From: Eubacteriales bacterium
Lineage (GTDB): Bacteria > Bacillota > Clostridia > Oscillospirales > CAG-272
Length of the DNA: 41,498 bases
Assembly: GCA_045534215.1 (NCBI GenBank)
Contig: JAZSJG010000029.1
Location: 1 to 41,498, forward strand
Direction of reading: 5' to 3'
Under the pieces are notes generated by a model. It saw nothing but the letters and a program-made list of their open reading frames with translations. It did not search any database and was not told the DNA's origin. Of this stretch, positions 4,332 through 37,616 are shown piece after piece. The number at the start of each line of letters is the position of its first letter. Within the stretch, counting starts at the first letter, position 1. A program made the position numbers and the translations under genes.

Positions 4332-4360
4332 TTGAATTTACTTAACTAAAGTTATATAAT
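4332..4360 (+). promoter_or_regulatory. SigA-type promoter of serC-serA with HisR/YerC-like operator (4334-4353) in the spacer
   Basis: TTGAAT-17bp-TATAAT; GAATTTACTTAACTAAAGTT contains TTTA-N6-TAAAGT. Confidence 0.7.
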
Positions 4361-4406
4361 TTATAACATATAGTATAATTAATAAATTAATTTTAAGGAG
4401 ATGCTT

Positions 4407-5492
4407 ATGAAAAGAGTTTATAATTTTTCTGCAGGACCGTCAATGCTTCCACTTTCAGTGCTTGAAAAAGCTGCAAGCGAGATGGTAAATTATGGTGATA
4501 GCGGTATGTCCGTTATGGAAATGAGCCACCGCTCCCCTGTATATGATGCAATAATAACTGAGGCGGAAAAGCTGCTTCGCGAGGTTATGAATATTCCCGA
4601 TAATTATAAAGTGCTTTTCTTGCAGGGAGGTGCTTCTACTCAGTTCGCGGCAGTTCCGCTTAACCTTATGAATAAAAACAAGAAAGCAGATTATATCGTT
4701 TCAGGTCAGTTTTCCGGCAAGGCATATAAAGAAGCTGCGAAATACGGTGATGTAGCTCTTGCTGCAACAAGCAAAGATGCAAACTTTACATTTGTTCCCA
4801 AAACCGATAAAGCTTCTTTCAGACCTGATGCAGATTACGTGCACATATGCTTTAATAACACTATATACGGAACAAAATTCCCATACATTCCAGATACCGG
4901 TGATATTCCGCTCGTTGCAGACATGTCTTCCTGCATACTTTCGGAGCCGGTTGACGTAAGCCGCTTTGGGCTTATATATGCCGGTGCTCAGAAAAATATG
5001 GCTCCCGCAGGACTTACTGTTGTTATAGTACGTGATGACCTTATAGGTAATGCCCGTGCTGACATACCGACAATGCTCGATTATTCTGTTATGGCAGAGA
5101 ACAATTCTATGTATAATACACCCCCGTGTTACTGCATTTATGTAGCAAAGCTCGTTTACGAATGGATTATTTCTATCGGCGGACTTTCAAAAATGAAAGA
5201 GCTTAACGAAAAAAAGGCAGCTTTGCTTTATGATTATCTTGACAGCCAGGATTATTATATTGCTCCGGTTGAGAAGGAATGCCGTTCTATGATGAATGTA
5301 ACCTTCGTTACAGGTGACGCGGAGCTTGATAAAAAATTTGCTAAAGAAGCAGATATGGCAGGTCTTAAGAATCTTAAAGGACACAGGTCTGTTGGCGGTA
5401 TGCGTGCTTCAATTTACAATGCTATGCCATATGAGGGCGTAGAGGCACTTGTTGAATTTATGAAGGATTTCGCAAAGAAAAACCCCAAATAA
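4407..5492 (+). CDS. serC: Phosphoserine aminotransferase
   Basis: RVYNFSAGPSMLP, MEMSHRS, YAGAQKN (PLP Lys), GHRSVGGMRASIYNA; start moved to ATG 4407 for RBS spacing. Confidence 0.97.
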   Translation: MKRVYNFSAGPSMLPLSVLEKAASEMVNYGDSGMSVMEMSHRSPVYDAIITEAEKLLREVMNIPDNYKVLFLQGGASTQFAAVPLNLMNKNKKADYIVSGQFSGKAYKEAAKYGDVALAATSKDANFTFVPKTDKASFRPDADYVHICFNNTIYGTKFPYIPDTGDIPLVADMSSCILSEPVDVSRFGLIYAGAQKNMAPAGLTVVIVRDDLIGNARADIPTMLDYSVMAENNSMYNTPPCYCIYVAKLVYEWIISIGGLSKMKELNEKKAALLYDYLDSQDYYIAPVEKECRSMMNVTFVTGDAELDKKFAKEADMAGLKNLKGHRSVGGMRASIYNAMPYEGVEALVEFMKDFAKKNPK

Positions 5493-5512
5493 TTCTAAAA
5501 AGGAGATTACAA

Positions 5513-6676
5513 ATGAAAAATATAAAGCTCATGAATAAAATTGCTGAGGTTGGAACTCAGGTTTTTGATTCTCAAAAATATAACGTTTCACAGAACGTTG
5601 AAAATCCTGATGCTATATTAGTTCGTTCCGCTTCACTTCACGATATGGAATTTCCCGAAACGCTTTGTGCTATTGCAAGAGCAGGTGCGGGTGTAAATAA
5701 TATCCCTGTTGATAAATGTACGGAAAAGGGAATTGTAGTATTCAATACTCCCGGTGCTAATGCAAACGGTGTAAAGGAACTTGCTATATGTGCTCTTGTT
5801 TTAGCTTCTCGCGACGTCGTAGGCGGTGTTAATTGGGCTGAGGGTCTTAACGGACAGAGCGGTGTTGCGAAGCTTGTGGAAGCAGGAAAGAGTGCATACG
5901 TCGGCACAGAGCTTCTTGGAAAGAAGCTTGGAGTTATAGGTCTTGGTGCAATAGGAGGCATGGTTGCGAACGCTGCAAACGCGCTCGGTATGAACGTTAT
6001 GGGATATGACCCATATATTACTCCGGCAGCAGCTTGGAGTCTTGCTCCTGCAATAAAACAGGCATCCGGATATGATGAAATTTTCAAAACCTGTGATTAC
6101 ATCACCTTGCACGTGCCCGCAACTCCCACCACGAAAAACATGATTTGCGAAAAAACACTTTCCACAATGAAGGACGGTGTAAGAATTATAAATCTTGCAC
6201 GTGCAGACCTGGTTAATGCTCTCGATATAAAAGCAGCGATTGAAAGCGGTAAGGTCGCAAAGTACGTTACCGACTTTCCTACCGATGATACCGTAGGCGT
6301 TAATGGAATTGTTAATATACCTCACCTTGGAGCTTCTACATATGAATCTGAAGACCACTGTGCAGTTATGGCTTCAAAGGAACTCAAAAACTATCTTGAA
6401 TGCGGTAATATTAAAAACAGTGTAAATTTCCCAAGTGTTGCTATTCCCCATACAATGCTCTCCAGAGTTTGCGTAATGCATAAGAATATTCCTAACATGC
6501 TCTCACAAATAACCGCCGCTTTCTCAAGTGTTAAGATTAACATTGAGAATCTTGCCAGCGGTTCGAAGGGCGAAATAGCATATACGATACTCGAAACAAA
6601 CGACACTCCTAACGATATGACGGTAAAAGCAGTAATGCAAATAGACGGCGTTTTTGGAGTGAAATGCTATCAATAA
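5513..6676 (+). CDS. serA: D-3-phosphoglycerate dehydrogenase with C-terminal ACT domain
   Basis: ARAGAGVNNIP, NTPGANAN, GVIGLGAIG Rossmann motif, PHLGAST, ACT HKNIPNML; follows serC. Confidence 0.93.
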   Translation: MKNIKLMNKIAEVGTQVFDSQKYNVSQNVENPDAILVRSASLHDMEFPETLCAIARAGAGVNNIPVDKCTEKGIVVFNTPGANANGVKELAICALVLASRDVVGGVNWAEGLNGQSGVAKLVEAGKSAYVGTELLGKKLGVIGLGAIGGMVANAANALGMNVMGYDPYITPAAAWSLAPAIKQASGYDEIFKTCDYITLHVPATPTTKNMICEKTLSTMKDGVRIINLARADLVNALDIKAAIESGKVAKYVTDFPTDDTVGVNGIVNIPHLGASTYESEDHCAVMASKELKNYLECGNIKNSVNFPSVAIPHTMLSRVCVMHKNIPNMLSQITAAFSSVKINIENLASGSKGEIAYTILETNDTPNDMTVKAVMQIDGVFGVKCYQ

Positions 6677-6703
6677 TTTGACACGCCACCCCGCATAAGA
6701 CAG

Positions 6704-6759
6704 CAAAGCACACCAAAATGCAAACAATTGTTTTTGTTTTGGTGTGCTTTGGATTTTTT
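6704..6759 (+). terminator. Long stem-loop / terminator after serA
   Basis: CAAAGCACACCAAAA...TTTTGGTGTGCTTTG inverted repeat followed by a T run. Confidence 0.7.
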
Positions 6760-6810
6760 GAATATACAAAGATTTTCAACTCAGTTCTTTAGCAAAATGT
6801 AAAATAACTA

Positions 6811-8013: not shown

Positions 8014-8038
8014 TGGTTTAGTTCTCTAAAGTGCTAAA
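8014..8038 (+). promoter_or_regulatory. HisR/YerC-like operator upstream of the leuA-ilv promoter
   Basis: TGGTTTAGTTCTCTAAAGTGCTAAA: TTTA-N6-TAAAGTG plus 8-bp-shifted CTAAA; shares TAAAGTGCTAAA exactly with the site before the his operon. Confidence 0.6.
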
Positions 8039-8062
8039 AATTTTTATTTTGTGCGCAAAATA

Positions 8063-8194: not shown

Positions 8195-9877
8195 ATGAAA
8201 AACGCAAACAAATATAAAAAGCAATACTTTACCGCGGATGGCGTCAACATGAGTTGGACGCAAAAAGAATATATAGACAAGCCACCTATGTGGTGCAGTG
8301 TAGATTTAAGGGACGGAAATCAGGCGCTGATTATTCCCATGTCACTTGAAGAGAAGCTGGAATTCTTTAAGCTCTTGTGCGACGTTGGATTCAAGGAAAT
8401 AGAGGTCGGATTTCCTGCTGCATCCGAGACCGAATACGAATTTTGCAGAACGATTATAGAAAAAAATCTCATACCCGACGACGTTACCATTCAGGTTCTT
8501 ACGCAGTCAAGAGAGCACATAATCGCAAAAACGTTTGAAGCCATAAAGGGTGCCAAGCACGCAGTAGTACATCTTTACAATTCTACTTCTCTTGCACAGC
8601 GTGAGCAGGTGTTTAAGAAGGATTGTGACCAGATAATAGACATTGCTAAATTCGGTGCCAAGCTTTGCAAGGAATACAAAGCAAAAGTAGACGGTAAAAT
8701 CACATTCGAGTATTCTCCGGAAAGCTTTACCGGAACAGAGCCGGAATTTGCTCTTAAGATATGCAACGAGGTTATTAAAATCTGGGAGCCCACCCCTGAG
8801 GACAAGGTTATAATAAATTTGCCTGTTACGGTTTCGCATTCGATGCCGCATGTTTATGCAAATCAGGTTGAATATATGCACAAAAATCTTTTGTCGAGGG
8901 AAAACGTAATTATTTCCCTTCATCCCCATAACGACAGGGGCTGTGCGATTGCCGACAGTGAGCTTGGATTGCTTGCAGGTGGCGATAGAATAGAGGGAAC
9001 GCTCTTTGGAAACGGAGAGAGAACGGGAAACGTTGATATAATCACTCTTGCTCTTAACATGTTTTCCCAGGGAGTAGATCCGGGTCTTGATTTTTCCGAC
9101 CTGCCGGCAATAACGCGCGTTTACGAAAAGGTCACACGCATGCACGTTTATGAGAGACAGCCATACAGCGGTCAGCTTGTATTTGCCGCATTTAGCGGCT
9201 CTCATCAGGATGCTATAGCCAAGGGTATGAAATATCGCGAGGGAAAGAACATTCCTTGGACAGTTCCGTATCTTCCCATAGACCCAACGGATATAGGAAG
9301 AGTGTATGAAGCGGACGTAATACGTATTAATTCACAGTCCGGCAAGGGCGGAATCGGATATATAATGGAGACACAGTTCAATCTAAACCTTCCGCCTAAA
9401 ATGAGGGAGAAATTCGGTTATCACGTCAAGGATATTTCCGACAAGGGTCACAGAGAGCTTATGCCCCAAGAGGTTTATGAAATTTTTATGAGAGATTTCG
9501 TCAATATTAAAAATCCTCTTACTGTATTGAAGACGAATTATACCGAGCTTCCCGGCGGAAATATAGAGGGAGAAATTCTCGTTAAATTTAACGGCCAAAC
9601 ACAAAAAGTAAAAGCAATTGGAAACGGGCGTCTTGACTGTGTAAGCGGTGCGGTTAAAACTGTTATAGGCAGTTATTACACGCTGGAAAATTATACTCAG
9701 CATGCAATAGAAGGAAAGAGCAGCGCGGAGGCGGCAGCTTACGTCAGTGTTTCGGACGGCATCAAGGTCTATTGGGGCGCCGGAATAGACAGCGATATCG
9801 GGGCATCTTCTGTGAAAGCTTTGGTAAGCGCTGTAAATGCAATGCTTTCCGACAAGGGAATTAAGGAGAACAAGTAA
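8195..9877 (+). CDS. leuA: 2-isopropylmalate synthase (yeast/actinobacterial-type LeuA)
   Basis: WCSVDLRDGNQAL, EYSPESF, SLHPHNDRG, GNGERTGNVD, FSGSHQDAI, INSQSGKGG. Confidence 0.96.
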   Translation: MKNANKYKKQYFTADGVNMSWTQKEYIDKPPMWCSVDLRDGNQALIIPMSLEEKLEFFKLLCDVGFKEIEVGFPAASETEYEFCRTIIEKNLIPDDVTIQVLTQSREHIIAKTFEAIKGAKHAVVHLYNSTSLAQREQVFKKDCDQIIDIAKFGAKLCKEYKAKVDGKITFEYSPESFTGTEPEFALKICNEVIKIWEPTPEDKVIINLPVTVSHSMPHVYANQVEYMHKNLLSRENVIISLHPHNDRGCAIADSELGLLAGGDRIEGTLFGNGERTGNVDIITLALNMFSQGVDPGLDFSDLPAITRVYEKVTRMHVYERQPYSGQLVFAAFSGSHQDAIAKGMKYREGKNIPWTVPYLPIDPTDIGRVYEADVIRINSQSGKGGIGYIMETQFNLNLPPKMREKFGYHVKDISDKGHRELMPQEVYEIFMRDFVNIKNPLTVLKTNYTELPGGNIEGEILVKFNGQTQKVKAIGNGRLDCVSGAVKTVIGSYYTLENYTQHAIEGKSSAEAAAYVSVSDGIKVYWGAGIDSDIGASSVKALVSAVNAMLSDKGIKENK

Positions 9878-11562
9878 TGAAATTGACAGGAGCAGAGATA
9901 GTAGTCAGAACATTGATAGAGCAAGGTGTTACTGACGTTTTCGGTTATCCCGGAGGACAAATAATTAACGTTTACGATGCACTTTATAAGTACCGGGATG
10001 AAATTAATCACGTGCTTACGGCACATGAGCAGGGTGCGGCTCACGCAGCAGACGGTTATTCAAGAGCAACGGGCAAGGTAGGAGTATGTATAGCGACCTC
10101 GGGTCCCGGTGCAACCAACCTTGTAACAGGTATCGCTACTGCAATGCTTGATTCAATACCAATGGTTGCAATAACGGGAAACGTTCCGTGTTCGCTTATA
10201 GGCAAGGACTCTTTCCAGGAAATAGATATCACGGGAATAACCCTGCCGATAACAAAGCATAACTATTTTGTCAATGACATAAATATTCTTGCAGATACAA
10301 TAAGAGAAGCATTCTCGATAGCCAAAGCAGGCAGACCCGGGCCGGTCCTTGTAGATATTCCAAAGGACGTACAGGTTGCAACTTGCGAGTGGGAGGATAA
10401 GGGTATCGCTCCAAAGAAGCAGTTGCCGAAGGTGTCCGATAAAGAGATTGCAAAGGCGGTTGAGCTCGTTAATGAATCAAAGCGTCCGTACATATATATC
10501 GGCGGCGGTGCTGCAGGACTCGGACTCGGAAAAGAGGTAATCGAGTTTGCCAAGAAAATTGATGCATGTATAGGATGCACTTTTATGGGCCTTTCCGCAA
10601 TTCCCGATGAATGCGAGCGTTTTCTCGGCATGCAGGGCATGCACGGTCATTACGCTTCCTCCGTTTCTCAAAATGAAGCCGACCTAATTATAGGTATAGG
10701 CGTTAGATTTAGCGACAGAGCTACGGGAAACGTACAAAAATATGCGAAAAGCAGTAAGATAATTCAGCTCGACCCTGATTTTTCTGAAATCAATAAGAAC
10801 ATAAATGTGGATTGCGGTCTTGTCGGGGACGTCGAACATTCGTTTAGAGAAATATTTAAAGCGGTTGATAAAAAATCAAACCCTGAATGGATGGCAAGAA
10901 TTGCAGAGCTAAAGGCGGACGAAGAGCGCTTTGAGAACGAGAGGGACGAGCAGAACAGAGATAAGCTTACTCCAAAAGAGGTTCTCAAGGTTATCAACAA
11001 AAGAAAACCCGGGGGAACTGTTATAGTAACAGACGTTGGACAGCATCAAATGTGGACAGCGCAATACGTTAAGTTCGACCGTCCAAGGCGCTTTGTTTCA
11101 AGTGGCGGTCTTGGTACTATGGGCTTCGGTCTTGGTGCGGCAATAGGTGCAAGGGTAGCTACTGATGATACAACCGTGCTTATTACGGGCGACGGAAGCT
11201 TCGGTATGAACCTTAACGAGCTTGCAACAGCGGTTTCTCATAATATACCGGTCATTATTGTAATTATGAACAACACAGTTCTCGGAATGGTTCGTCAGTG
11301 GCAAACGCTTTTCTTTGGCAAGAGATACTCGAATACAGTACTTTCCGACAGAAAGACGGATTTTGTGAAGCTTGCCGAGGCATTTGGCGCTGTTGGATTT
11401 AGGGCTGATACTAAGGAAGAGTTCGAAAAAGCTTTTGTGAAAGCTGTCGAGCTTGGTACTACGGTAGTCATTGATACAAGCATTGACAAGGACGAGTTCG
11501 TTTTGCCAATGCTCCCGCCCGGCGGTTCGGTTGAAGAGATAATAACGAGCGTAAGCAAGTGA
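9877..11562 (+). CDS. ilvB: Acetolactate synthase large subunit
   Basis: FGYPGG, HEQGAAHAADGY, TSGPGATN, DVGQHQMW, GGLGTMGFG, GDGSFGMN (TPP motif); TAATG overlap with leuA. Confidence 0.96.
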   Translation: MKLTGAEIVVRTLIEQGVTDVFGYPGGQIINVYDALYKYRDEINHVLTAHEQGAAHAADGYSRATGKVGVCIATSGPGATNLVTGIATAMLDSIPMVAITGNVPCSLIGKDSFQEIDITGITLPITKHNYFVNDINILADTIREAFSIAKAGRPGPVLVDIPKDVQVATCEWEDKGIAPKKQLPKVSDKEIAKAVELVNESKRPYIYIGGGAAGLGLGKEVIEFAKKIDACIGCTFMGLSAIPDECERFLGMQGMHGHYASSVSQNEADLIIGIGVRFSDRATGNVQKYAKSSKIIQLDPDFSEINKNINVDCGLVGDVEHSFREIFKAVDKKSNPEWMARIAELKADEERFENERDEQNRDKLTPKEVLKVINKRKPGGTVIVTDVGQHQMWTAQYVKFDRPRRFVSSGGLGTMGFGLGAAIGARVATDDTTVLITGDGSFGMNLNELATAVSHNIPVIIVIMNNTVLGMVRQWQTLFFGKRYSNTVLSDRKTDFVKLAEAFGAVGFRADTKEEFEKAFVKAVELGTTVVIDTSIDKDEFVLPMLPPGGSVEEIITSVSK

Positions 11563-11570
11563 GGTGGAGT

Positions 11571-12071
11571 ATGAAAAATAATAAGTTTGTTATAGCCGTA
11601 TACGTTGAAAACAAATTCGGTGTTCTTACCAGAGTAACGAGTATGTTTACACGTCGCGGATTTAATATCGATGCTCTCACGGTAGGAGAAACCGAGCGCC
11701 CGGAATATTCGCGAATAACAATATCCTTGAGCGGTGACGGTTATGCAAGGGAGCAGCTCATAAATCAGCTTCGCAAGCTTATCAACGTCAAAAAGGTGGA
11801 CGTGCTTGAAGATGACTGTATAAAAAGAGAGCTTATGCTCTTGAAGGTAAGATACACCTCGGAAACGAGAGCGGATATTCTTTCTGCCACGGACGTTTAT
11901 CGGGCAAAGGTAATAGATTATACGACCGATGAGATGTGTATAGAGGTTACAGGAGACCCGAACAAGATAGACGCATTTATAAAGCTTATGATTCCGTACG
12001 GAATTATTGAAATGTGCCGCACGGGTATAGTTGCTCTTGACAGAGGCAGCGAAAATTTATTTGACGATTAA
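11571..12071 (+). CDS. ilvN: Acetolactate synthase small (regulatory) subunit
   Basis: VENKFGVLTRV, RRGFNIDALTVG, RELML, EMCRTG; start at ATG 11571 after GAGGTGGAG. Confidence 0.95.
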   Translation: MKNNKFVIAVYVENKFGVLTRVTSMFTRRGFNIDALTVGETERPEYSRITISLSGDGYAREQLINQLRKLINVKKVDVLEDDCIKRELMLLKVRYTSETRADILSATDVYRAKVIDYTTDEMCIEVTGDPNKIDAFIKLMIPYGIIEMCRTGIVALDRGSENLFDD

Positions 12072-12076
12072 TTTAA

Positions 12077-13126
<1,050 letters not shown>

Positions 13127-13148
13127 TTTTGAAAGGAATACATCCGTT

Positions 13149-14810
13149 ATGATAAAGGAAAAAGTAGTAGACGGATTTCAAAATGCACCCCACCGCTCCC
13201 TCTATCACGCTCTCGGTTATACCGAGGAGGAGATGAGCCGTCCTTTAATAGGCATTGTCAGCTCGTATAACGAGATAGTTCCGGGACACATCAATCTTGA
13301 CAAAATAACACAAGCGGTGAAAATGGGCGTCGCAATGGCAGGCGGAACACCGATTATGTTTCCTGCAATTACGGTTTGCGATGGAATAGCAATGGGACAT
13401 GTTGGTATGAAATACTCTCTTGTGACGCGTGATTTGATTGCTGATTCTACAGAGGCAATGGTTATGGCTCACGGCTTTGACGGACTTGTCATGATTCCCA
13501 ACTGCGATAAGAACGTGCCGGGATTGCTTATGGCAGCTGCACGTCTTAATATACCCACTGTTTTTGTAAGCGGTGGTCCTATGCTTGCAGGTCGAGTAGG
13601 GGGTAAAAAGAGAAGTCTTTCGAGTATGTTTGAAGCAGTCGGAGCTTACACAGCCGGAAAAATCGACGAATGCGAGCTGTGTGAATTTGAAAAGAAGGTT
13701 TGCCCGACCTGCGGCTCTTGCTCGGGTATGTATACGGCAAATTCCATGAACTGCTTAACAGAGGTTCTCGGTATGGGACTTTCGGGTAACGGAACAATCC
13801 CTGCGGTTTATTCTTCAAGAATTGAGCTTGCAAAGCATGCCGGTATGCAGGTAATGGAGCTTGTCAGAAAGAATATTCGACCAAAAGATATAATGACAAA
13901 AGAAGCAATAAGAAATGCTATTACTGCAGATATGGCGCTCGGTTGTTCAACCAACAGTATGTTACATCTTCCTGCCATAGCAAATGAGCTTGGAGTAGAT
14001 TTCTGCCTTGACGACGTTAATGAAATCAGCGAAAAAACTCCCAATCTGTGCCATCTTGCTCCCGCAGGTCCTACGTATATGGAGGATCTTAATGAGGCAG
14101 GCGGTGTTTATGCAGTTCTTGCCGAGCTTGATAAGCTCAAGCTTATCGATACTTCTGTTATGACATGCACGGGTAAAACCATGGCTGAAAATATTGCTTC
14201 GGCGAAGAATCTTGACACCGACGTTATCCGTACGGTAGATAACCCCTATAGCAAGACAGGCGGCATTGCCGTGCTAAAAGGAAATCTTGCACCGGACGGC
14301 TGTGTTGTAAAAAGGAGTGCAGTAGCACCCGAAATGCTCGTCCACGAAGGACCTGCAAAGGTTTATGAAAGCGAAGAGGAAGCGATTTCGGCTATCTATG
14401 CAGGGAAAATAGAAAAGGGCGACGTAGTTGTTATAAGATACGAAGGACCTGCAGGAGGTCCGGGCATGCGTGAAATGCTTTCACCTACTTCTGCAATAGC
14501 GGGAATGGGACTTGATAAGGACGTTGCACTTATAACGGACGGCCGTTTCTCCGGAGCAACGAGAGGTGCGTCTATAGGTCACGTTTCGCCCGAGGCGGTG
14601 AGCGGAGGTACTATAGCATACGTAAAGGACGGAGATATAATTTCCATAAATATTCCGGAGTACAGAATTGAACTCAAGGTATCCGAAAAGGAGCTTGAAA
14701 AGCGCAAAAGTGAGATGCCCATCAAGAAAAAAGAGAATATTACGGGATATCTTAAGCGCTATGCTGCAATGGTAAGCTCTGCCGACAAAGGAGCAATTAT
14801 AAACAAATAA
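13149..14810 (+). CDS. ilvD: Dihydroxy-acid dehydratase
   Basis: [45 protein letters not shown]. Confidence 0.97.
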
Positions 14811-14835
14811 GCGGCTTTGAAAACAGAAGCAAAAG

Positions 14836-14868
14836 GGCAAAAGCTCTTCGTAACGGAGAGCTTTTGCC
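14836..14868 (+). other. Intra-cluster stem-loop between ilvD and leuC (terminator or mRNA-stabilising hairpin)
   Basis: GGCAAAAGCTCT...AGAGCTTTTGCC perfect 12-bp inverted repeat; no U-tract after the full stem. Confidence 0.65.
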
Positions 14869-14936
14869 GAATGAATTTAGAAATATCTGCGTAAAAATAA
14901 CGTTTTATATATATCGTATCTGAAAGGAAATTTGAT

Positions 14937-16205
14937 ATGCCAATGACAATGACGCAAAAGATACTTGCAAGTCACGCAGGACTTGAATACGTTGAGCCGG
15001 GGCAGCTTGTGCTCGTAAACGTAGACAGGGTGCTCGGAAATGATATTACATCTCCCGTGGCTATTCGCGAGTATGAAAAAATCGGTGTAAGCGGTGTGTA
15101 TGACCGTGAAAAAGTAACTATGGTAATGGACCACTTCGCACCAAACAAGGATATAAAGGCGGCAACACAGTGTAAAATGTGCCGTGACTTTTGCGAGAAG
15201 GAAGAGATTGTAAACTTCTTCGATGTAGGAGAGATGGGAATTGAGCATGCTCTTCTCCCCGAAAAGGGACTTGTAATTCCCGGTGACGTTGTAATCGGTG
15301 CTGATTCTCATACCTGTACATACGGAGCATTGGGTGCTTTTTCAACGGGCGTAGGTTCAACTGATATGGCATGCACAATGGCAACCGGTAAGACATGGTT
15401 TAAGGTTCCTTCGGCAATCAAATTCAATCTGAAAGGAAAGCTTAACAAGTATGTTTCCGGCAAGGATGTCATTCTTCATATTATAGGAATGATTGGCGTT
15501 GACGGTGCACTTTATAAGTCTATGGAGTTTTCGGGAGAGGGACTCAAATCTCTCACTGTATTCGACCGTCTTACAATAGCAAACATGGCTATTGAGGCGG
15601 GGGCGAAGAACGGAATTTTCGAAGTGGACGAAATTACCGAAAGCTATGTAAAAGAGCGCTCGGATAAGAAATACTCCGTGTTCTCAGCAGATGAGGATGC
15701 AGAGTATGATGCGGTTTACGATATAGATTTATCTAAGATAAAATCAACCGTTGCCTTCCCGCATCTTCCCGAAAATACGAAAACGATAGACGAAGTCGGC
15801 AACGTAGCTATAGACCAGGTAGTTATCGGATCTTGTACGAACGGACATTACAAGGATTTGGCTGAAGCGGCTGAGATTATGAAGGGTAAAAAGGTCAATA
15901 AAAGGGTTAGAGCCATAATAATTCCGGCAACACAGGATATCTATCTTAAGGCAATGGAAAACGGGCTTCTTAAGATATTCGTTGAGGCAGGATGCGTGGT
16001 TTCAACACCTACCTGCGGTCCTTGTCTTGGCGGCCATATGGGTGTTCTTGCAGCAGGAGAAAGAGCTGTTGCAACAACAAACCGTAATTTTGTAGGCCGT
16101 ATGGGTGACGTAACTAGCGAGGTTTATCTTGCAAGTCCTGCGGTTGCGGCGGCGAGTGCAATAGAGGGTAAAATAGCTGACCCGTGTAAAATAATGAAAG
16201 GTTGA
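14937..16205 (+). CDS. leuC: 3-isopropylmalate dehydratase large subunit
   Basis: [37 protein letters not shown]. Confidence 0.95.
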
Positions 16206-16217
16206 GGGGGAAGAAAG

Positions 16218-16712
16218 ATGAAATTTGAAGGAAAAGCCATCAAATACGGAGATAACGTTGATACCGACGTAATCATTCCCGCAAGATACCTTAATACAAT
16301 CGATAAAAAGGAACTTGCCTCTCACTGTATGGAGGACATAGATAAGGATTTTGCAAAAAAGGTGAGTGTTGGTGATATAATGATAGCCGGATCGAATTTC
16401 GGCTGCGGTTCATCAAGAGAGCATGCACCTATTGCCATAAAGGAGAGCGGAATATCACTTGTTATAGCAAAAAGCTTTGCGAGAATATTTTACAGAAACT
16501 CCATCAACATAGGTCTTGCTATCCTTGAGTGCGAGGAAGCAAGCGAGAGAATAAACGAGGGTGACAGTGTTGAAGCTGACCTTGATGCCGGTATGATTTA
16601 TAACAGAACTACGGGCGAAAGCTTCAAAACAAAGCCGTTCCCCGACTTTGTTCAGAAAATTATATCAAACGGCGGACTCGTAGAGTCTATCCGCCGCGGT
16701 GACATAAAATAA
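16218..16712 (+). CDS. leuD: 3-isopropylmalate dehydratase small subunit
   Basis: [34 protein letters not shown]. Confidence 0.95.
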
Positions 16713-16756
16713 AATTCAGAAAATTTATGCCAGAGGCAGAATGGAAGATAGAGCGT

Positions 16757-17824
16757 ATGAATTATAATATAGCCCTTTTGAAAGGTGACGGAATAGGACC
16801 GGAAATAGTAGACAGCGCTGTACGAGTGCTGAATAAAATCGGAGAAAAGTACGGACACAGCTTCAATTTTAAGGAATATGATATAGGCGGTATTGCAATA
16901 GACAAGCACGGAGTACCGCTTCCCGAAGAAACCGTAAAGGGATGCCTTGCCTCAGACAGTGTTATCCTCGGAGCAGTTGGCGGACCGAAATGGGATGAGC
17001 TTCCCGGACATTTGCGTCCGGAAAAGGCACTTCTCGGAATACGTGCCGCAATGGAGCTTTTCACAAACCTGCGTCCCGCGAAGCTTTATCCCGCCTTGAA
17101 GGACGATTGCCCACTTAGAAGTGACATAGTCGATAAAGGATTTGATATTATGATAGTAAGAGAGCTCACAGGCGGAATTTACTTTGGCGAAAGAGGAATG
17201 CGTGAGGGCAAATACGGTGAGGAAGCGTACGATACGGAATGCTACAGCCGCATGGAAATAGAGAGAATAGCCAAGGTCGCTTTTGACGCTGCTATGAAAA
17301 GAAACAAAAGAATTGTCAGCATAGATAAGGCAAATGTTCTTGAAAGTTCTCGCCTTTGGAGAAAAATAATTCACGAAATGGCAAAGGATTATCCGGAGGT
17401 AACTGCTACAGATATGCTCGTTGACAACGCTGCGATGCAGCTTGTTCGTAATCCGGGGCAGTTTGATGTCATAGTTACAACTAATATGTTTGGTGACATC
17501 CTATCAGACGAAGCATCGCAGATAACAGGATCTATCGGAATGCTTCCGTCCGCTTCTCTTGGAAGCAGCACAAGAGGTCTTTATGAGCCGATACACGGTT
17601 CAGCTCCCGACATAGCAGGTCAGAACAGAGCGAATCCGATAGCAACGATACTTTCCGCGGCAATGATGCTTCTTTATTCATTTAATCTTTCCGAAGAGAG
17701 CGATGCTATTGTGTCTGCGGTTGATAAGGTTCTTGAGGCCGGATACAGAACATCCGACCTTGCTCACGGTAAGGATGCTCTTTCCACTACGGAAATGACC
17801 GACAAAATAATAGGAAATATATAA
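16757..17824 (+). CDS. leuB: 3-isopropylmalate dehydrogenase
   Basis: [46 protein letters not shown]; start 16757 chosen by homology (16727 possible). Confidence 0.96.
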
Positions 17825-17834
17825 AGGATGCGGT

Positions 17835-19007
17835 ATGATAAATCTTAAAGAGCTTTATCTTAAGCTTTGTATGTCAAGCGTTTTTTCTTCTGTCCTTGAT
17901 AAGAAAATATTTGAGCTTTTTGCAAAATATTGCACCTCGGAGCAAAAGCACGATAAAATAAGAGCATACGGAGCTTTCGTTTCAGAAATATATCAAAACG
18001 GCGGCTCTCTTACCGATTACATACAGCGCCTTATACTTGAGGACGAAAACGTTTATATAAAAGCAATGGCGCATAAAAATCCCATCAGGGAAGAAATCAT
18101 ATGTGCTCTTGATGAGGAACTTGCGGCATTCGGTCAATTTGCTTCCGTTCGCGACGCGGATTTTGCATCCGATATGGAGCTTGATTACGTTTCTCGCTTT
18201 GAGTCACACCAAATTGATTTGAAAAAATGCTACAGTGACAGAATTCTCGGTATATCGAAATACGGATATGGAATTTTCTCTTCCTATCCTATGTTCCGTC
18301 TTTCTGACGAGGGGGAAATTGAGCCCATAATAAGCCGCGATAAAACCTCGGTTGACAAGTTCGTAGGTTATGAAAGGGAAAGAAGTGCCGTAATAGAAAA
18401 TACTGTTGCATTTACTGAAAACCGACCGGCAGCAAACGTTTTGCTCTGCGGTGATGCGGGAACGGGTAAATCTTCTACGGTAAAAGCAATAGCCAATATG
18501 TTTTTTGATTCGGGTGTGCGTCTTATAGAGCTCCGTAAGGACCAGCTTCACCATATCCCTTATGTTATGGGCAAAATTAGCGAAAATCCGTTGAAGTTCA
18601 TTATATTCATAGATGATTTGTCCTTCAATCAGAGCGATGACAATTTCAGCATGCTTAAAGCGGCTCTTGAGGGCTCTGCGTCGGCAAAGGCGGAAAATGC
18701 CGTCATATATGCAACATCCAACAGACGCCACATAGTCAGAGAGAGCTTTGCCGACAGAGACGGTGATGATGTACATAGGAACGATACTATGCAGGAAACG
18801 CTCTCCCTTTCCGAAAGATTCGGACTTGTAGTTTTGTTTGAAAGACCGAATAAAAAGCTTTATCTTGATATTGTGTTCACGCTCGCTGAACGCTCGGGCA
18901 TAAGCATGGGAAAAGAAGAGCTTGCAATCAAAGCAGAGGCATTTGCACTAAAGCGCGGAAGCCGTTCGGCAAGATGTGCAGAGCAATTTATCGAGAGTCT
19001 TTTGTGA
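17835..19007 (+). CDS. AAA+ family ATPase of unknown function (DUF815-like)
   Basis: Walker A GDAGTGKSS, Walker B IIFIDDLSF, YATSNRRH, SLSERFGL, GSRSARCAEQF. Confidence 0.8.
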   Translation: MINLKELYLKLCMSSVFSSVLDKKIFELFAKYCTSEQKHDKIRAYGAFVSEIYQNGGSLTDYIQRLILEDENVYIKAMAHKNPIREEIICALDEELAAFGQFASVRDADFASDMELDYVSRFESHQIDLKKCYSDRILGISKYGYGIFSSYPMFRLSDEGEIEPIISRDKTSVDKFVGYERERSAVIENTVAFTENRPAANVLLCGDAGTGKSSTVKAIANMFFDSGVRLIELRKDQLHHIPYVMGKISENPLKFIIFIDDLSFNQSDDNFSMLKAALEGSASAKAENAVIYATSNRRHIVRESFADRDGDDVHRNDTMQETLSLSERFGLVVLFERPNKKLYLDIVFTLAERSGISMGKEELAIKAEAFALKRGSRSARCAEQFIESLL

Positions 19008-19022
19008 TGAAAGGATAACTGA

Positions 19023-20216: not shown

Positions 20217-20234
20217 TTAAAGGAGGAGTTTGAC

Positions 20235-20700: not shown

Positions 20701-20729
20701 TTGACAAACTAATTGTATAGTAGTATAAT
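20701..20729 (+). promoter_or_regulatory. Consensus SigA promoter of the regulator-his operon
   Basis: TTGACA-17bp-TATAAT, perfect consensus. Confidence 0.85.
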
Positions 20730-20753
20730 TTAGCGTGTTAAAGTGCTAAAGTG
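20726..20753 (+). promoter_or_regulatory. Tandem HisR/YerC operator overlapping the -10 and transcription start
   Basis: TAATTTAGCGTGTTAAAGTGCTAAAGTG: palindrome TTTA-N6-TAAAGTG with a second TAAAGTG 8 bp downstream, directly before a TrpR-family gene. Confidence 0.75.
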
Positions 20754-22155: not shown

Positions 22156-22171
22156 CTGGCGGAGAGCGGAA

Positions 22172-24063: not shown

Positions 24064-24086
24064 CAGCTTAAAGCAAGGTGAGGGTT

Positions 24087-25163
24087 ATGAGTAAATTTTT
24101 CAGTAAAAAATATTCCGAATTAAAGCCCTATACTCCGGGTGAGCAGCCGCGGGATATGAAGTATATAAAGCTGAATACTAATGAGTCACCGTTTTCACCG
24201 TCTATAAGGGTCGCTTCGGCAGTTGCGGAGGAAATTCGGAATTTGAAGCTTTATTCAGACCCGGAATGTAAGCAGCTTCGCGAAAAGCTCGCGGATATTT
24301 TATCCGTTCCTCAGTCATATGTGATTTTATCCAACGGCTCAGATGAGATATTGAATTTTGCATTTATGGCATTTTCCGACAAGGATAATCCTTTGATTTT
24401 CCCTGATATAACATATGGATTTTATTCGGTTTTTGCTAAGCTTAACGCAATTCCCTATGAGCAGATACCGCTTTCCAAGGAATTTACAATAGATACTTCC
24501 GATTATATCGGCAAAGGTAAAAATATTGTTATAGCAAATCCGAATGCGCCTACCGGAATTGCATTGGGACTTGATGAAATTGAAAAAATTGTAAGCTCTA
24601 ATCCCGAAAATGTTGTAATTATAGATGAGGCATACGTTGATTTTGGTGCACAAAGTGCCGTTCCTTTGACAAAAAAATATAAAAATCTTATAGTTGTGGG
24701 AACGTTTTCGAAATCACGCTCTATGGCAGGTGCGCGACTCGGGTTTGCGGTAGCGGACCCGGAGCTTATTCGGGATTTGGAAACAATAAGATATTCAACA
24801 AATCCATATAACGTTAACCGCATGACGTTGGCAGCAGGAGTCGCCACACTCGCGGATAATGATTATTATATGGACAATTGCAGGAAAATTATAGAGAATC
24901 GCGAGTATACAAGAAACAAGCTTTTGAATCTTGGTTTTTCCGTGTTGGATTCAAAGACGAATTTTCTCTTCATAAAGAGTGGGGAAATAGGTGGGGAAGA
25001 GCTTTACTTAAAGCTGAAAAGAAACGGTGTTCTTGTCAGGCACTTCAATACGGAGCGCATCAAGGACTATAACCGAGTGACAATAGGCACTAAAGAAGAA
25101 ATGGACATTTTTCTTTCAAAGACAGAAAATATCCTCAAGGAGAAATCAAATGAGAACTTATAA
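24087..25163 (+). CDS. hisC: Histidinol-phosphate aminotransferase
   Basis: KLNTNESP, NGSDE, NPNAPTG, DEAYVDF, TFSKSRSMAGARLG. Confidence 0.95.
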   Translation: MSKFFSKKYSELKPYTPGEQPRDMKYIKLNTNESPFSPSIRVASAVAEEIRNLKLYSDPECKQLREKLADILSVPQSYVILSNGSDEILNFAFMAFSDKDNPLIFPDITYGFYSVFAKLNAIPYEQIPLSKEFTIDTSDYIGKGKNIVIANPNAPTGIALGLDEIEKIVSSNPENVVIIDEAYVDFGAQSAVPLTKKYKNLIVVGTFSKSRSMAGARLGFAVADPELIRDLETIRYSTNPYNVNRMTLAAGVATLADNDYYMDNCRKIIENREYTRNKLLNLGFSVLDSKTNFLFIKSGEIGGEELYLKLKRNGVLVRHFNTERIKDYNRVTIGTKEEMDIFLSKTENILKEKSNENL

Positions 25164-25737
25164 GGTAGAGCGAAAAACTAATGAAACAGATATAAAGCTT
25201 ACTCTCTCATTAGACGGAGTTGGAAGCTCAAATATTGACACGGGTTGTGGTTTTCTTGACCATATGCTCACACTTTTTGCCCGCCATGCTCATTATGACT
25301 TGGTCGTGAAGTGTATAGGCGATACTAACGTTGATTATCATCATACAGTAGAGGACGTCGGAATATGCCTTGGCAAAGCGTTTCTTGAAGCTTTGGGGGA
25401 TAAACGCGGCATTTACCGCTATGCTGATAAAACCATACCTATGGATGAAGCTCTTATACTCGTAGCTGTTGATATATCGGGAAGAGATTATCTCGGTTAT
25501 GCTCTTGATATTCCGTCATACCGTGTGGGCGATTTCGATACAGAGCTTTGTGAGGAATTTATGAAGGCATTTGTTCGTGAAGCGAAAATAACCCTGCACG
25601 TAAGACAGCTTGCGGGCACTAATTCGCACCACATAATAGAGGGAGCTTTCAAGGCGCTTGCAAGAGCACTCTCTTCTGCAACAAGGATAGACGAGAATTT
25701 CCAAGAGGAGCTTCCCTCGACAAAAGGAGTTCTCTGA
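25150..25737 (+). CDS. hisB: Imidazoleglycerol-phosphate dehydratase (monofunctional)
   Basis: RKTNETDI, FLDHML, HHTVED, PMDEAL, NSHHIIE, PSTKGVL. Confidence 0.96.
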   Translation: MRTYKVERKTNETDIKLTLSLDGVGSSNIDTGCGFLDHMLTLFARHAHYDLVVKCIGDTNVDYHHTVEDVGICLGKAFLEALGDKRGIYRYADKTIPMDEALILVAVDISGRDYLGYALDIPSYRVGDFDTELCEEFMKAFVREAKITLHVRQLAGTNSHHIIEGAFKALARALSSATRIDENFQEELPSTKGVL

Positions 25738-26345
25738 TGATAGCGATAGTAGACTATGGGGTAGGTAATTTATTCTCTCTTGCCTCATCCTTTCGCGCTG
25801 TAGGCGAAGAGGCGGTTGTAACAAGCAACCCTAAGGTTCTTGCAGAAGCGAAAAAAATAATCCTGCCGGGTGTCGGAGCATTTGAGGATGCGAAGCGTAA
25901 GCTCGTTGATTTAGGGCTCGACGTATCTTTAAGAAAAGAGGTTGAAAAGGGGAAAAAGCTTTTCGGAATTTGCCTTGGAATGCAGCTTCTTTTTGAAAAA
26001 AGCTATGAGTACGGAGAGCATCAGGGGCTTGGCTTGCTTAAAGGAAGTATCGTTTCCATGAGGGATAAAATTGATACCTCGCTTACCGTTCCTCATATTG
26101 GCTGGAACTCCCTTAGATTAAAAAGGGAACATCCGATTTTTAAGTATGTAAAAGAGAACGATTATGTATATTTCGTTCATTCTTACTTTGCAACAGGTTG
26201 CAATGAGAGCTTGCTTGCAACCACAGATTACGGCATAGAGCTTACTGCGGCGGTGGCTCTTGAAAATGTTGCCGGGACTCAATTCCACCCAGAGAAAAGC
26301 GGTGAGGTAGGCCTTAAAATTCTTAAAGCCGTTTGCGAGTGGTAG
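25737..26345 (+). CDS. hisH: Imidazole glycerol phosphate synthase, glutaminase subunit
   Basis: DYGVGN, LPGVGAF, GICLGMQ, YFVHSY, QFHPEKS. Confidence 0.96.
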   Translation: MIAIVDYGVGNLFSLASSFRAVGEEAVVTSNPKVLAEAKKIILPGVGAFEDAKRKLVDLGLDVSLRKEVEKGKKLFGICLGMQLLFEKSYEYGEHQGLGLLKGSIVSMRDKIDTSLTVPHIGWNSLRLKREHPIFKYVKENDYVYFVHSYFATGCNESLLATTDYGIELTAAVALENVAGTQFHPEKSGEVGLKILKAVCEW

Positions 26346-26357
26346 AAAGGATTGTAA

Positions 26358-27071
26358 ATGAAAATTTTTCCCGCCATTGATTTATATGAAGGAAAAGCTG
26401 TGCGTCTTTTCAAGGGCGATTATTCAAATATGACTGTTTACAGCACGTGTCCATCTGAGGTTGCACGTGATTTTGTAAACCAGGGGGCAGAATATATACA
26501 CATAGTTGACCTCGAGGGAGCAAAGGATGGCACGACTCCCAATTTGGAGGTCGTGGCAAAAATTGTTAAAGAAAGCGGTGCGTTCGTAGAAGTGGGGGGC
26601 GGAATCAGGAGTATGGACGTGCTTCGAAAATATCTTGATATTGGCGTCGGAAGAGTAATTCTCGGAACTGCGGCAATAACGTCACCCGACTTCTTGCAAG
26701 AGGCGGTAGATAAGTACACAGATAAAATAGCCGTGGGAGCTGATATCCGTGACGGATACATAGCTATTAAGGGCTGGACGGAAAAATCCCAAATTTCCAA
26801 GGAAAGCTTTTTTGATAAAATGGAAAAGGTTGGGGTTAAAACAGTAATATGTACCGACATATCTAAGGACGGAGCAATGCAGGGAACAAATCTTGAGCTT
26901 TATTCCGACCTTGCAGGGAAGTACTCAGTTAACATAATTGCATCAGGAGGCGTAAGCTCTCTTGAAGACATTAAAAAGCTTTCCGAGATTAACATTTACG
27001 GAGCAATTATCGGTAAGGCATACTATACAGGAAGCATCAGCTTGCAGGAGGCAATAGAGATAGCAAAATGA
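26358..27071 (+). CDS. hisA: ProFAR isomerase
   Basis: PAIDL, HIVDLEGA, GGGIRS, TDISKDG, IASGGV. Confidence 0.95.
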   Translation: MKIFPAIDLYEGKAVRLFKGDYSNMTVYSTCPSEVARDFVNQGAEYIHIVDLEGAKDGTTPNLEVVAKIVKESGAFVEVGGGIRSMDVLRKYLDIGVGRVILGTAAITSPDFLQEAVDKYTDKIAVGADIRDGYIAIKGWTEKSQISKESFFDKMEKVGVKTVICTDISKDGAMQGTNLELYSDLAGKYSVNIIASGGVSSLEDIKKLSEINIYGAIIGKAYYTGSISLQEAIEIAK

Positions 27072-27826
27072 TAACTAAAAGAATTATTCCTTGCCTCGAT
27101 GTTAAGGACGGAAGAGTAGTCAAGGGAGTTAATTTTCTTGGGCTCTCGGACGTATCCTCCCCGATTAAGCTTGCAAAGTATTATTCTGACAGCGGAGCAG
27201 ACGAGCTGGTTTTTTATGATATAACAGCATCATACGAGGGGCGTGCGCTTTTTACCGATATACTTACAGAAGTAGCGAAAAACATATTTATTCCTCTTAC
27301 AGTAGGCGGAGGAATTAACACGGTAGGGGACTTTGAACGCGTGCTTAAATGCGGAGCGGATAAGGTTAGCGTTAATTCGGGTGCAATTAAAAATCCTGAT
27401 TTGATATATGAGGCAGCCAAGAAGTATGGAAATCAGTGCGTTGTTATATCTGCAGATGTAAAGCGTGTCGGCGATAAATTTTTAGTATTTGCCAAGGGTG
27501 GAAGAGAAAATACCGGACTTGAGGCAATAGAGTGGATAAAAAGATGCGTCGATATGGGAGCGGGTGAGGTTGTCGTAAATTCAATAGATACAGACGGTGT
27601 CAAGGGTGGCTTTGATATAGAAATGCTTATGGCGGTTAGAGAAGCTGTAAAGGTTCCGGTTATTGCCTCCGGAGGCGCGGGCTCTGTATCCGATTTTGTA
27701 AAGCTGTTCAAAGAAATTCCAGATATAGATGCAGGCCTTGCGGCATCCATCTTCCATTTCGGAGAGGTTAAAATTGGTGATTTGAAAAAAGAACTGTTGG
27801 AAAACGGTATCAAGGTGAGAATTTAG
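27068..27826 (+). CDS. hisF: Imidazole glycerol phosphate synthase, cyclase subunit
   Basis: KRIIPCLDV, GADELVFYDI, GADKVSVNS, IASGGAG, AASIFH. Confidence 0.97.
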   Translation: MITKRIIPCLDVKDGRVVKGVNFLGLSDVSSPIKLAKYYSDSGADELVFYDITASYEGRALFTDILTEVAKNIFIPLTVGGGINTVGDFERVLKCGADKVSVNSGAIKNPDLIYEAAKKYGNQCVVISADVKRVGDKFLVFAKGGRENTGLEAIEWIKRCVDMGAGEVVVNSIDTDGVKGGFDIEMLMAVREAVKVPVIASGGAGSVSDFVKLFKEIPDIDAGLAASIFHFGEVKIGDLKKELLENGIKVRI

Positions 27827-27846
27827 GTTTGTTTAAGGAGAATTTT

Positions 27847-28494
27847 ATGCTTGATATAGAAAAACTCAAGTTTGACGAAAAAGGACTTATACCTGCCATT
27901 GTGGTTGATTCTGTCAGCAAAAAGGTTTTAACCCTCGCTTACATGAATCGTCAAAGTCTTAAGATTTCGATTGAAAAGGGGCTGACCTGTTTTTTCAGCC
28001 GTTCGAGAAATGAGCTGTGGCTCAAGGGGGAAACAAGCGGAAATTATCAGCATATTGTTTCGATAACCGCTGACTGTGATATGGACGCCTTGACGGTTGT
28101 GGTTGAAAAAGACGGACCTGCGTGTCACACGGGTAGCGACACTTGCTTCTATAATACACTTTTTCAGAGCGAAAAATTAAATCAGTTTACTCTTGAAGGT
28201 CTTTATTCATTGCTTGAGAAAAGAAAAGAAGAGAAGCCCGCGGGCTCTTATACAACCTATCTGTTTGAAAAGGGAAGAGATAAAATTCTCAAAAAGGTAG
28301 GGGAAGAGTCAACAGAGGTAATAATCGCTGCTAAAGCGGACGATAAAAAGGAAACGGTTTATGAGATAGCCGACCTTGCGTATCATGTAATGGTTCTTAT
28401 GACAGAAATGGGGATAACAGTTGAAGACGTACACCGTGAGCTTGCATCCCGACACATAATAGACCATAAGGTTAAACAGGAAAAAATGACATAA
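27847..28494 (+). CDS. hisIE: Bifunctional phosphoribosyl-AMP cyclohydrolase / phosphoribosyl-ATP pyrophosphatase
   Basis: WLKGETSGN, DCDMD, ACHTG, SYTTYLF, KKVGEE, ADLAYH; start ATG 27847 after AAGGAG. Confidence 0.95.
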   Translation: MLDIEKLKFDEKGLIPAIVVDSVSKKVLTLAYMNRQSLKISIEKGLTCFFSRSRNELWLKGETSGNYQHIVSITADCDMDALTVVVEKDGPACHTGSDTCFYNTLFQSEKLNQFTLEGLYSLLEKRKEEKPAGSYTTYLFEKGRDKILKKVGEESTEVIIAAKADDKKETVYEIADLAYHVMVLMTEMGITVEDVHRELASRHIIDHKVKQEKMT

Positions 28495-36451: not shown

Positions 36452-36872
36452 GGGATTACTTAGCTTTGTAAAGGAAAAAAAGGGGATAGCCATAGCTTTT
36501 ATCTTTATGTTGCTCGGAGTGATTCTGATATTCTCATCATCACTTTTTGACGCAGATGAGAATAAAGATGCCGCGAATACGGAAAAAAGTGCCGAGGAAT
36601 ACCGATTGTATTTGGAAGAGGAGCTTGAGGGATTTTGCGAACAAATCGAAGGCGTTGGCAGATGCCGCGTGTTCTTGACAATTGAAATAAACAAAACCGA
36701 TTCGTACAAAAGCTATTATGTAAGTGAAACAAGTCCCCCTGCAGTCCTCGGGATAACTGTACTTTGCGAGGGTGCAGATTCAGACGCAGTAAAGAAAAAT
36801 CTTACACAAATGCTTGCTGCTCTTTTTGGAATTGGGAGTAATAGAATTTCGGTTTTGAAATTAAATTTGTGA
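36435..36872 (+). CDS. spoIIIAG: Stage III sporulation protein AG (short)
   Basis: LE..L....IEGVG...V..T, P.V.G..V.CEGAD, LFGI..NRI.V. Confidence 0.85.
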   Translation: MFPLSKGLLSFVKEKKGIAIAFIFMLLGVILIFSSSLFDADENKDAANTEKSAEEYRLYLEEELEGFCEQIEGVGRCRVFLTIEINKTDSYKSYYVSETSPPAVLGITVLCEGADSDAVKKNLTQMLAALFGIGSNRISVLKLNL

Positions 36873-36939
36873 AAGCGGAATATAGCGACCGGGTTGCACA
36901 TAGGATTTATCAGAAACAAATACAAGGAGCGTTAATAAA

Positions 36940-37500
36940 ATGAAAAACGAAAAAGTTAAAAAATTCTTCTCTTCAAGAGTGACCCGCAATGTTGTAGTCG
37001 TAGTTACCGTGTTGCTGATTGGTTTGGCGGTTTACTTAAATTACAGATGGTTCTACGACCCAATGGATTCTCTCGGCTTCGGAGATAACAACATGGATAA
37101 CAATAATGACCAGAGCCAAAGCACGTCGGGTGATACAGATGATAATGAGAGCAAGAACAACTATTTCACCTCTGTTGCTTTAGTGCGCCAACAGTCAAGA
37201 GATGAAGCAATAGACGTTCTTATGCTTATTACCGAAAACGAAGAAGCAGATGAGGCGGCAAAGGCGGAAGCTGCTGAGAAAATTTCCAAGATAGCTGTTG
37301 ATATTCAAAATGAAACTAATATTGAAACTCTTGTAAAAGCAAAGGGATTTGAGGATTGCATAGCTGTAATTTCAGAGGATGCCGTAAGTGTCATTGTAAG
37401 AGCGGACTCCCTTCAGGCAAACGAAGCTGCTCAAATACTCAGTATTGTGTACGAAACTACAGGCATATCTCCTCAGAATATAAGCATTATCAATAAATAA
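36940..37500 (+). CDS. spoIIIAH: Stage III sporulation protein AH
   Basis: AVYLNY, YF....L.R...R, E..IE.LVKAKGFEDC, V.VIV. Confidence 0.9.
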   Translation: MKNEKVKKFFSSRVTRNVVVVVTVLLIGLAVYLNYRWFYDPMDSLGFGDNNMDNNNDQSQSTSGDTDDNESKNNYFTSVALVRQQSRDEAIDVLMLITENEEADEAAKAEAAEKISKIAVDIQNETNIETLVKAKGFEDCIAVISEDAVSVIVRADSLQANEAAQILSIVYETTGISPQNISIINK

Positions 37501-37542
37501 GCGTGCATTACGAGCGATATAGTTGTGCATCTTAAATGTCAT

Positions 37543-37574
37543 AAAAGCACCGTGCAAAATTAACGGTGCTTTTT
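37543..37574 (+). terminator. Terminator after spoIIIAH
   Basis: AAAAGCACCGT...ACGGTGCTTTTT. Confidence 0.8.
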
Positions 37575-37586
37575 CTTAATTTGATG

Positions 37587-37616
37587 TTGACAAGAACACT
37601 TTAGTGTGGTAAAATG
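37587..37616 (+). promoter_or_regulatory. SigA promoter of asd overlapped by HisR/YerC-like operator (37597-37616)
   Basis: TTGACA-17bp-TAAAAT (TG-extended); CACTTTAGTGTGGTAAAATG is a near-perfect palindrome (minus strand TTTA-N6-TAAAGTG). Confidence 0.7.

Follow-up and report, generated by a model that had tools for sequence, protein, structure and literature searches.

Does the HisR repressor encoded at the head of a histidine operon control that operon only, or do promoters of other amino-acid pathways carry its operators as well? The question is raised by a 41,498-nucleotide stretch of DNA from a Eubacteriales bacterium (contig JAZSJG010000029.1, our contig C96), referred to here as the window, in which a first-pass annotation had noticed one palindromic core at serC, leuA, hisR and asd and had proposed that HisR governs all four pathways. 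We favour, with modest confidence, a narrower reading: an ordinary autoregulated HisR system with a species-specific extension to asd and probably to proB, a gene outside the window. To judge by the operator sequences, it is likely that HisR controls at least one non-his operon in this species, and the complete regulon of his, serC, leuA and asd appears improbable. The genome (G000) is a 1.54-Mb draft in 118 contigs, 78% complete, with 41% G+C.

HisR and its own promoter

The identification of the protein encoded at 20762-21067 as a HisR/YerC repressor was upheld. It matches TIGR02531 at 121.4 bits (cut-off 42.2, E 1.6e-35) and the Trp_repressor fold, PF01371, at 89.1 bits, and its relatives in the Protein Data Bank are 3frw, 3g1c and 3kor (E 6e-30 to 3e-25). 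The solved E. eligens HisR, 3G1C, aligns over residues 4-96 (3g1c_A, E 7.3e-26), and 3frw_A gives E 6.3e-30. No other member of the family was detected in the incomplete genome. The end of hisR overlaps the start of hisZ (21064-21067), linking the regulator directly to the histidine biosynthesis genes.

The his operator is real and, as had been claimed, staggered by 8 bp, with copies starting at 20726 and 20734 that cover the -10/+1 region of a perfect consensus promoter. The first copy agrees with 12 of the 14 positions of the published HisR consensus cacTTTAnnnnnnTAAAgtg (PMC9413887, as given in the portion of that paper used here), which the annotation had stated correctly. Homologous promoter and operator sequences are present in the relative G012. 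Among the relatives (G-numbers), hisR loci were requested for 40 and obtained for 29 besides the locus in the window, and in 13 of these 30 loci the second-best match lies exactly 8 bp from the best, which makes staggered tandem operators a real feature of the genus. Elsewhere in the window such an offset copy is missing at asd and serC, and at leuA it has the core but a score of -6.1. An operator of at least 15 bits precedes hisR in 21 of the 29 relatives, a count that is circular since these sites trained the scoring matrix described below. The hisR-his system of the window is an ordinary one of a known kind. From the protein family and the promoter geometry we infer binding, a response to histidine and repression: with histidine presumably as corepressor, HisR would bind the two staggered 20-bp palindromes over the -10/+1 of its own promoter and block RNA polymerase.

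Candidate operators outside the histidine operon

The window holds exactly four matches to the pattern TTTANNNNNNTAAAGT (TTTA-N6-TAAAGT), at 4337-4352, 8017-8032 and 20729-20744 on the plus strand and at 37598-37613 on the minus strand, confirming all four sites of the first-pass annotation. The accompanying claim that they exceed chance holds for the window, where 100 dinucleotide shuffles gave a mean of 0.26 matches and reached four only once, but not for the genome, where the pattern was found 7 times against a mean of 10.7 (maximum 17) in 20 block shuffles. It is unusual in placement, not in genome-wide number. Six of the seven matches are intergenic (intergenic DNA being the 145,106 bases between crude open reading frame (ORF) calls, ~9% of the genome); five of these six precede serC, leuA, hisR, asd and proB and the sixth follows argF.

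A position weight matrix built from the four sites would have been circular, and it was replaced by one from the hisR operators of relatives. Each of the 23 relatives that passed contributed the site closest to the consensus in the 150 bp before its hisR, and the matrix was palindromised; the genome under study was excluded. The three best matches in that genome, at asd, hisR and proB, are all intergenic and all at amino-acid biosynthesis promoters, which by a rough estimate, not a count, make up a few percent of intergenic regions. Chance matches expected in the intergenic DNA number 0.0007 at the asd score or better (≥23.6 bits), 0.0017 for hisR and 0.08 at the proB score or better (≥18.4), compared with about 3 at the level of serC and leuA (≥12.4). 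Only hisR, asd and proB are individually significant. Three intergenic matches reach at least 18 bits, a level reached by none with the backwards matrix and by a mean of 0.1 (maximum 1) with 40 column-permuted matrices.

The matrix was also applied to the relative G013. Intergenic sites close to the consensus were found there in front of serC-serA-ridA-hisR-his, of an amino-acid ABC transporter (binding protein and permease; site at G013:C56:19091-19110) and of a sodium/solute (SSS, PutP-like) symporter (site at G013:C8:7970-7989). The matrix thus behaves sensibly, as these sites show the mix of his genes and transporters known from the literature, with serCA in addition. The symporter and the ABC transporter are candidate histidine uptake systems; no homologue of either turned up in the genome studied here, which is 78% complete.

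The asd site lies between the -35 TTGACA (37587) and a TG-extended -10, TAAAAT (37610-37615), which it overlaps. The annotation had conceded that this site partly borrows bases from the -10 box, and its right half is indeed the extended -10; the asd promoters of the genus all carry TTGACA-N17-TGnTAAAAT, with spacers that vary freely. The left half is nevertheless improbable. It is CACTTTAG, the full consensus and the best-scoring 8-mer possible (P 1.9e-5 per promoter), and even with the extended -10 granted free, only 0.0025 such sites are expected across the 131 intergenic TGnTAAAAT elements. The promoter alone therefore does not explain the site, which has the appearance of a full-strength HisR-type operator in a repressing position and is very unlikely to have arisen by chance.

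The third match of the genome, upstream of the glutamate 5-kinase gene proB on contig C54, was absent from the first-pass annotation and is a stronger candidate than serC or leuA. It is a good site, but it lies 5 bp ahead of the -35 element in a 12/12 TG-extended promoter, which is no classic repressor position. The presence of the same type of operator in the asd promoter and upstream of the proB -35 suggests that HisR most likely also represses asd, and it would probably modulate proB; both genes would be species-specific targets that the regulon has gained recently. The features concerned are collected in Table 1.

Table 1. Operator-like sites, promoters and genes in the window, with two sites on other contigs. 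Scores and ranks refer to the independent position weight matrix.
Feature	Position	Strand	Score (bits), rank	Details
Site in serC promoter spacer, GAATTTACTTAACTAAAGTT	4334..4353		12.7, 23	weak HisR-like site
serC-serA	4401..6676	+		serC at 4401, serA at 5513; NCBIfam
ilvE	start 6857			NCBIfam/Pfam scans
Site before leuA	8014..8041		12.4, 26	weak HisR-like site at 8014; copy at +8 scores -6.1
leuA promoter	8063-8091			-35 TTGACA at 8063; -10 TAAAAT at 8086-8091
leuA-ilvB-ilvN-ilvC-ilvD-leuC-leuD-leuB-DUF815-ilvA-ridA	8195..20609	+		NCBIfam/Pfam scans
hisR promoter	20701..20729	+		TTGACA-17-TATAAT, 12/12 consensus; -10 TATAAT at 20724-20729
HisR operator	20726..20753		22.8, 2	20-mer 20726-20745 (22.8); copy 8 bp downstream, 20734-20753 (14.1)
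hisR	20762..21067	+		YerC/TrpR-family repressor, 101 aa; first gene of his operon
hisZ-hisG-hisD-hisC-hisB-hisH-hisA-hisF-hisIE	21064..28494	+		contiguous with hisR; NCBIfam equivalog match for each gene
Site upstream of spoIIIAA	32886		15.8, 4	
Candidate HisR-type operator at asd, CACTTTAGTGTGGTAAAATG	37597..37616		23.6, 1	top of genome; 1 mismatch to 14-base consensus
asd, aspartate-semialdehyde dehydrogenase	37650..38732	+		NF006416, 477 bits; true ATG at 37650
Candidate site upstream of proB, AACTTTATCGTGGTAAAGCG	C54:484-503		18.4, 3	outside the window
Site after argF terminator	C51:7391		15.3, 6	

The serC site fills the spacer between the -35 TTGAAT (4332) and the -10 TATAAT (4355-4360). 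A strong site (21.8 bits) occupies the same promoter position in G013, as TTG-CAATTTATCGTGATAAAGTG-TATAAT, and the serC site of the window may be a weakened version of that operator. In several relatives the spacer in front of the -10 resembles (C)TAAAGT or CGAAGT but the left half is missing, and this shared right half cheapens the match in the window. HisR control of serC is possible but doubtful on its sequence. G013 has serC-serA-ridA-hisR-hisZGD in one uninterrupted series and no operator immediately before hisR; an operator-like remnant (12.3 bits) lies at the serA stop codon. The serC-serA pair adjoins hisR in G012, G013, G110 and G141, and in both G013 (C21) and G012 (C158) it stands directly beside hisR-his, G013 keeping ridA between them. 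Unlike those relatives, the genome studied here has serA separated from ridA by ilvE and the entire leu/ilv cluster. It also encodes a second SerC paralogue, 58% identical (C105:6590-7678), and two copies occur in G012, G013 and G007 too, so the his-linked serC-serA may be a specialised copy.

The leuA site departs from the claim that the motif sits at all four promoters: relative to sigma-70-like promoters, the motif occupies the spacer at serC, -10/+1 at hisR and the spacer and -10 at asd, but lies upstream of the promoter at leuA. It spans 8014-8033, starting ~8 bp after the terminator hairpin and T-run of ilvE (~7971-8010) and ending 30 bp upstream of the -35, so that its centre is ~75 bp upstream of the predicted start. 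With the hisR operator it shares the 12-mer TAAAGTGCTAAA, found nowhere else in the genome, and TTTA-N6-TAAAG-N3-TAAA has exactly two genome occurrences, at these same two places. A duplicated promoter cassette upstream of leuA and hisR was considered and found no support, because the aligned similarity is confined to the site. The leuA site may be a relic or a chance match, and HisR control of leuA is unlikely on the sequence. The leuA leader (8098-8194, ~95 nt) holds a small hairpin with a T-rich run behind it (8127-8141) and has no Rfam match.

Further matches of intermediate score were noted. The 20-mer at 32886-32905, upstream of spoIIIAA, AAATTTCGTATGCTAAAGTG, is very similar to one at C26:4537-4556, GAATTTCGTATGTTAAAATG, between genes for a GPH symporter and a beta-glucuronidase; the two may be chance or the motif of another factor. 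At C14:8648-8667, GAATTTAGTGTGTTAAAATT (14.2 bits) ranks second for its left half when the 131 extended -10 promoters are compared, and it lies between a TrmO-like gene and a gene for a 667-aa protein without a family match. The C51 site (7391-7410, CGATTTAATTAACTAAAGTA) stands directly after the argD-argF terminator, and the -35 of a flotillin-like gene follows 39 bp further on. It resembles the leuA site in that both directly follow the terminator of an amino-acid gene.

NCBIfam and Pfam scans gave the gene order of the window as a 1322-aa protein, serC, serA, ilvE, the leu/ilv cluster, hisR-his, two minus-strand genes, the spoIIIA operon and asd. The 1322-aa protein (159-4127) has a heparinase II/III-like C-terminal domain, and a 917-aa protein (28557-31310) has a C-type lectin domain; neither has an NCBIfam match. 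The DUF815 AAA-ATPase gene between leuB and ilvA (17835-19007) looks out of place among biosynthetic genes of one operon. An Rfam scan of the window returned a single tRNA and no T-box or riboswitch in the leaders of these promoters. A metagenome scan with IlvB and 10-kb flanks for strain-level relatives having all three sites together on a contig gave a best full-length match of 61% identity, and 77% on one short fragment, neither of which could be used.

Weighing the extra sites

Conservation is the main difficulty for an extension of the regulon to asd and proB. Footprinting covered hisR, serC and asd in 29 relatives, proB in 28 and leuA in 8; a search of 213 genomes of the genus supplied another 29 loci for asd and another 26 for serC. 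Upstream of asd, one of the first 29 relatives reached 15 bits (G035, 15.6, at -160) and none of the second 29 did; G012 (14.7 in either set), G052 (12.8) and G141 (12.1) match only in part at the promoter position, below that threshold. None of the 28 relatives reaches 15 bits upstream of proB, the region in G012 being cut by a contig end. The strong serC site of G013 is the only one in 29 relatives, none of the 26 further genus members reaches 12.4 bits there, and the leuA site is found in none of the eight relatives compared. The footprinting of serC, leuA and asd that the first-pass annotation had called for thus revealed no extra site conserved across the genus. The nearest species show ~76-78% asd DNA identity and 86-87% SerC protein identity, and because their promoters have diverged, absent conservation is weak evidence, yet it offers no support. 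Other observations weigh in the same direction. At up to two mismatches, the consensus matches 7 times in the genome and a backwards control pattern 14 times. The right half of the matrix resembles TGnTAAAAT, so that the matrix partly encodes an extended -10 and inflates moderate intergenic scores; several matches scoring 13-15 bits stand in front of unrelated genes, such as dxr and those for a HAD hydrolase, a DNA methylase, a P-type ATPase, a glucuronidase and a subunit of oxaloacetate decarboxylase. A HisJ-family histidinol phosphatase gene, an expected target, is present without a site (with its discovery, a HAD hydrolase on contig C60 was dropped as the missing histidinol phosphatase). 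Control of asd or proB by histidine has no evident physiological rationale, and the genome is an incomplete draft with genes called as crude ORFs.

These points bear on the possibility that only the hisR operator is functional and that the asd, proB, serC and leuA sites are neutral look-alikes, arisen by chance or as relics of rearrangement around hisR. Such an account, which we consider rather unlikely, agrees with the missing conservation of all four sites, the chance-level scores of serC and leuA and the absence of a genome-wide excess of the pattern. It can also draw on the genus-wide extended -10 that forms the right half at asd, on the serC right half resembling the spacer of relatives that have no left half, and on the position of the leuA and C51 sites just after terminators, 30-39 bp upstream of the next -35; the remnant at the serA stop of G013 shows that such relics exist. 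What it accounts for poorly is the asd site, expected by chance in so few cases even given its -10, together with the placement of the three best matches of an independent matrix at amino-acid biosynthesis promoters and the three intergenic matches of at least 18 bits where 40 permuted matrices gave at most one.

The opposite view is that of the first-pass annotation, in which HisR is a multi-pathway repressor of serC-serA, leuA-ilv, his and asd (to which proB could be added) and histidine acts as a signal of general amino-acid sufficiency. We regard it as improbable. The intergenic placement of six of the seven pattern matches, five of them before amino-acid biosynthesis operons and the sixth after argF, speaks for it, as do the serC site as positional counterpart of the strong G013 site, the 12-mer unique to leuA and hisR, and the genuine hisR operator of G007, which has a serC-like TTAAC-type centre. 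At least 12.4 bits are reached by 18 intergenic matches, as against 5 with the backwards matrix and a mean of 3.5 (maximum 13) with the 40 permuted matrices, but this moderate-score excess looks largely like -10 mimicry beside unrelated genes, and the pattern itself was defined after its four sites had been seen. Control of several pathways by HisR is supported at asd, the best match of the genome, whereas serC (rank 23) and leuA (rank 26) stand at background; the leuA site has a poorly scoring +8 copy and lies far upstream of the predicted start, and the region upstream of ilvE has no HisR-type site. The serC and leuA matches are best described as core-only look-alikes of uncertain function.

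Branched-chain amino-acid operons in Firmicutes are often controlled by CodY, and the motif could in principle belong to CodY or to an unknown global factor. This is very improbable. The CodY-box consensus matches 8 times in the window against 5.6 expected, a number reached in 24 of 100 shuffles, and no CodY box was found upstream of leuA or ilvE; the motif is instead the HisR consensus of the literature and of the hisR-upstream operators in 21 of the 29 relatives. The reading we retain is that of an ordinary HisR system extended to asd and probably proB.

Relation to known regulons

The closest well-known parallel is E. coli TrpR, which belongs to the same PF01371 fold family and is likewise an autoregulated, corepressor-dependent dimer with palindromic operators overlapping promoters. 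TrpR dimers bind in tandem 8 bp apart, and the TrpR regulon (trp, aroH, aroL, mtr and trpR) stays within one pathway family. Operator sequence and ligand differ between the two systems, and the candidate sites described here cross pathways.

In Firmicutes, Ashniev et al. (2022; PMC9413887) describe HisR, in the parts of their paper drawn on here, as a TrpR-family repressor with the operator consensus given above, and mention half-sites with an 8-bp spacer. The HisR of R. gnavus binds DNA only with histidine present. Besides hisR itself, their regulons comprise the his operons and the transporters hisXYZ and yuiF, to which four Lactobacillales add tdcP-tdcA-tyrT, and the site search was limited to regions upstream of those genes; the words serine, serC, proline and branched do not occur in the main text. 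For Clostridium acetobutylicum, the portion of PMC3828012 used here proposes a regulon of the hisZ operon and hisC only. The system in the window resembles those of PMC9413887 in its ~100-aa TrpR-family protein beside the his genes, its 20-bp palindrome and its autoregulated hisR as first gene of the his operon, and the relative G013 adds the co-regulated transporters; with C. acetobutylicum (PMC3828012), also one of the Clostridia, it shares a HisR motif ahead of hisZ. It differs from both descriptions, as far as these sources go: the best operator match is at asd and another is at proB, G013 has one at serC, and G013 also has a site before a sodium/solute symporter, a family not among the HisR targets named there. 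The asd and proB matches argue against a regulon confined to histidine genes in this species, but they are unconserved and sequence-based.

The broader view, in which HisR is turning into a multi-pathway amino-acid repressor (asd, proB, serC-serA, leu/ilv and his) in an uncultured spore-forming Firmicute, is as improbable as the four-pathway regulon, and the same holds for the corollary that relatives such as G013, in which a single operator heads serCA joined to the his operon, represent intermediate stages.

Until now, searches for HisR regulons, like the regulons reported, have been limited to histidine genes and transporters. The practical importance of the present case is modest, as it concerns one draft genome. 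The asd promoter nevertheless makes a clean test case: a single spacer half-site is essentially all that sets it apart from its counterparts in the genus. If asd and proB do respond, a small TrpR-family repressor can gain cross-pathway targets within a single species, and such rewiring would escape any reconstruction of a regulon that is confined to the cognate pathway.

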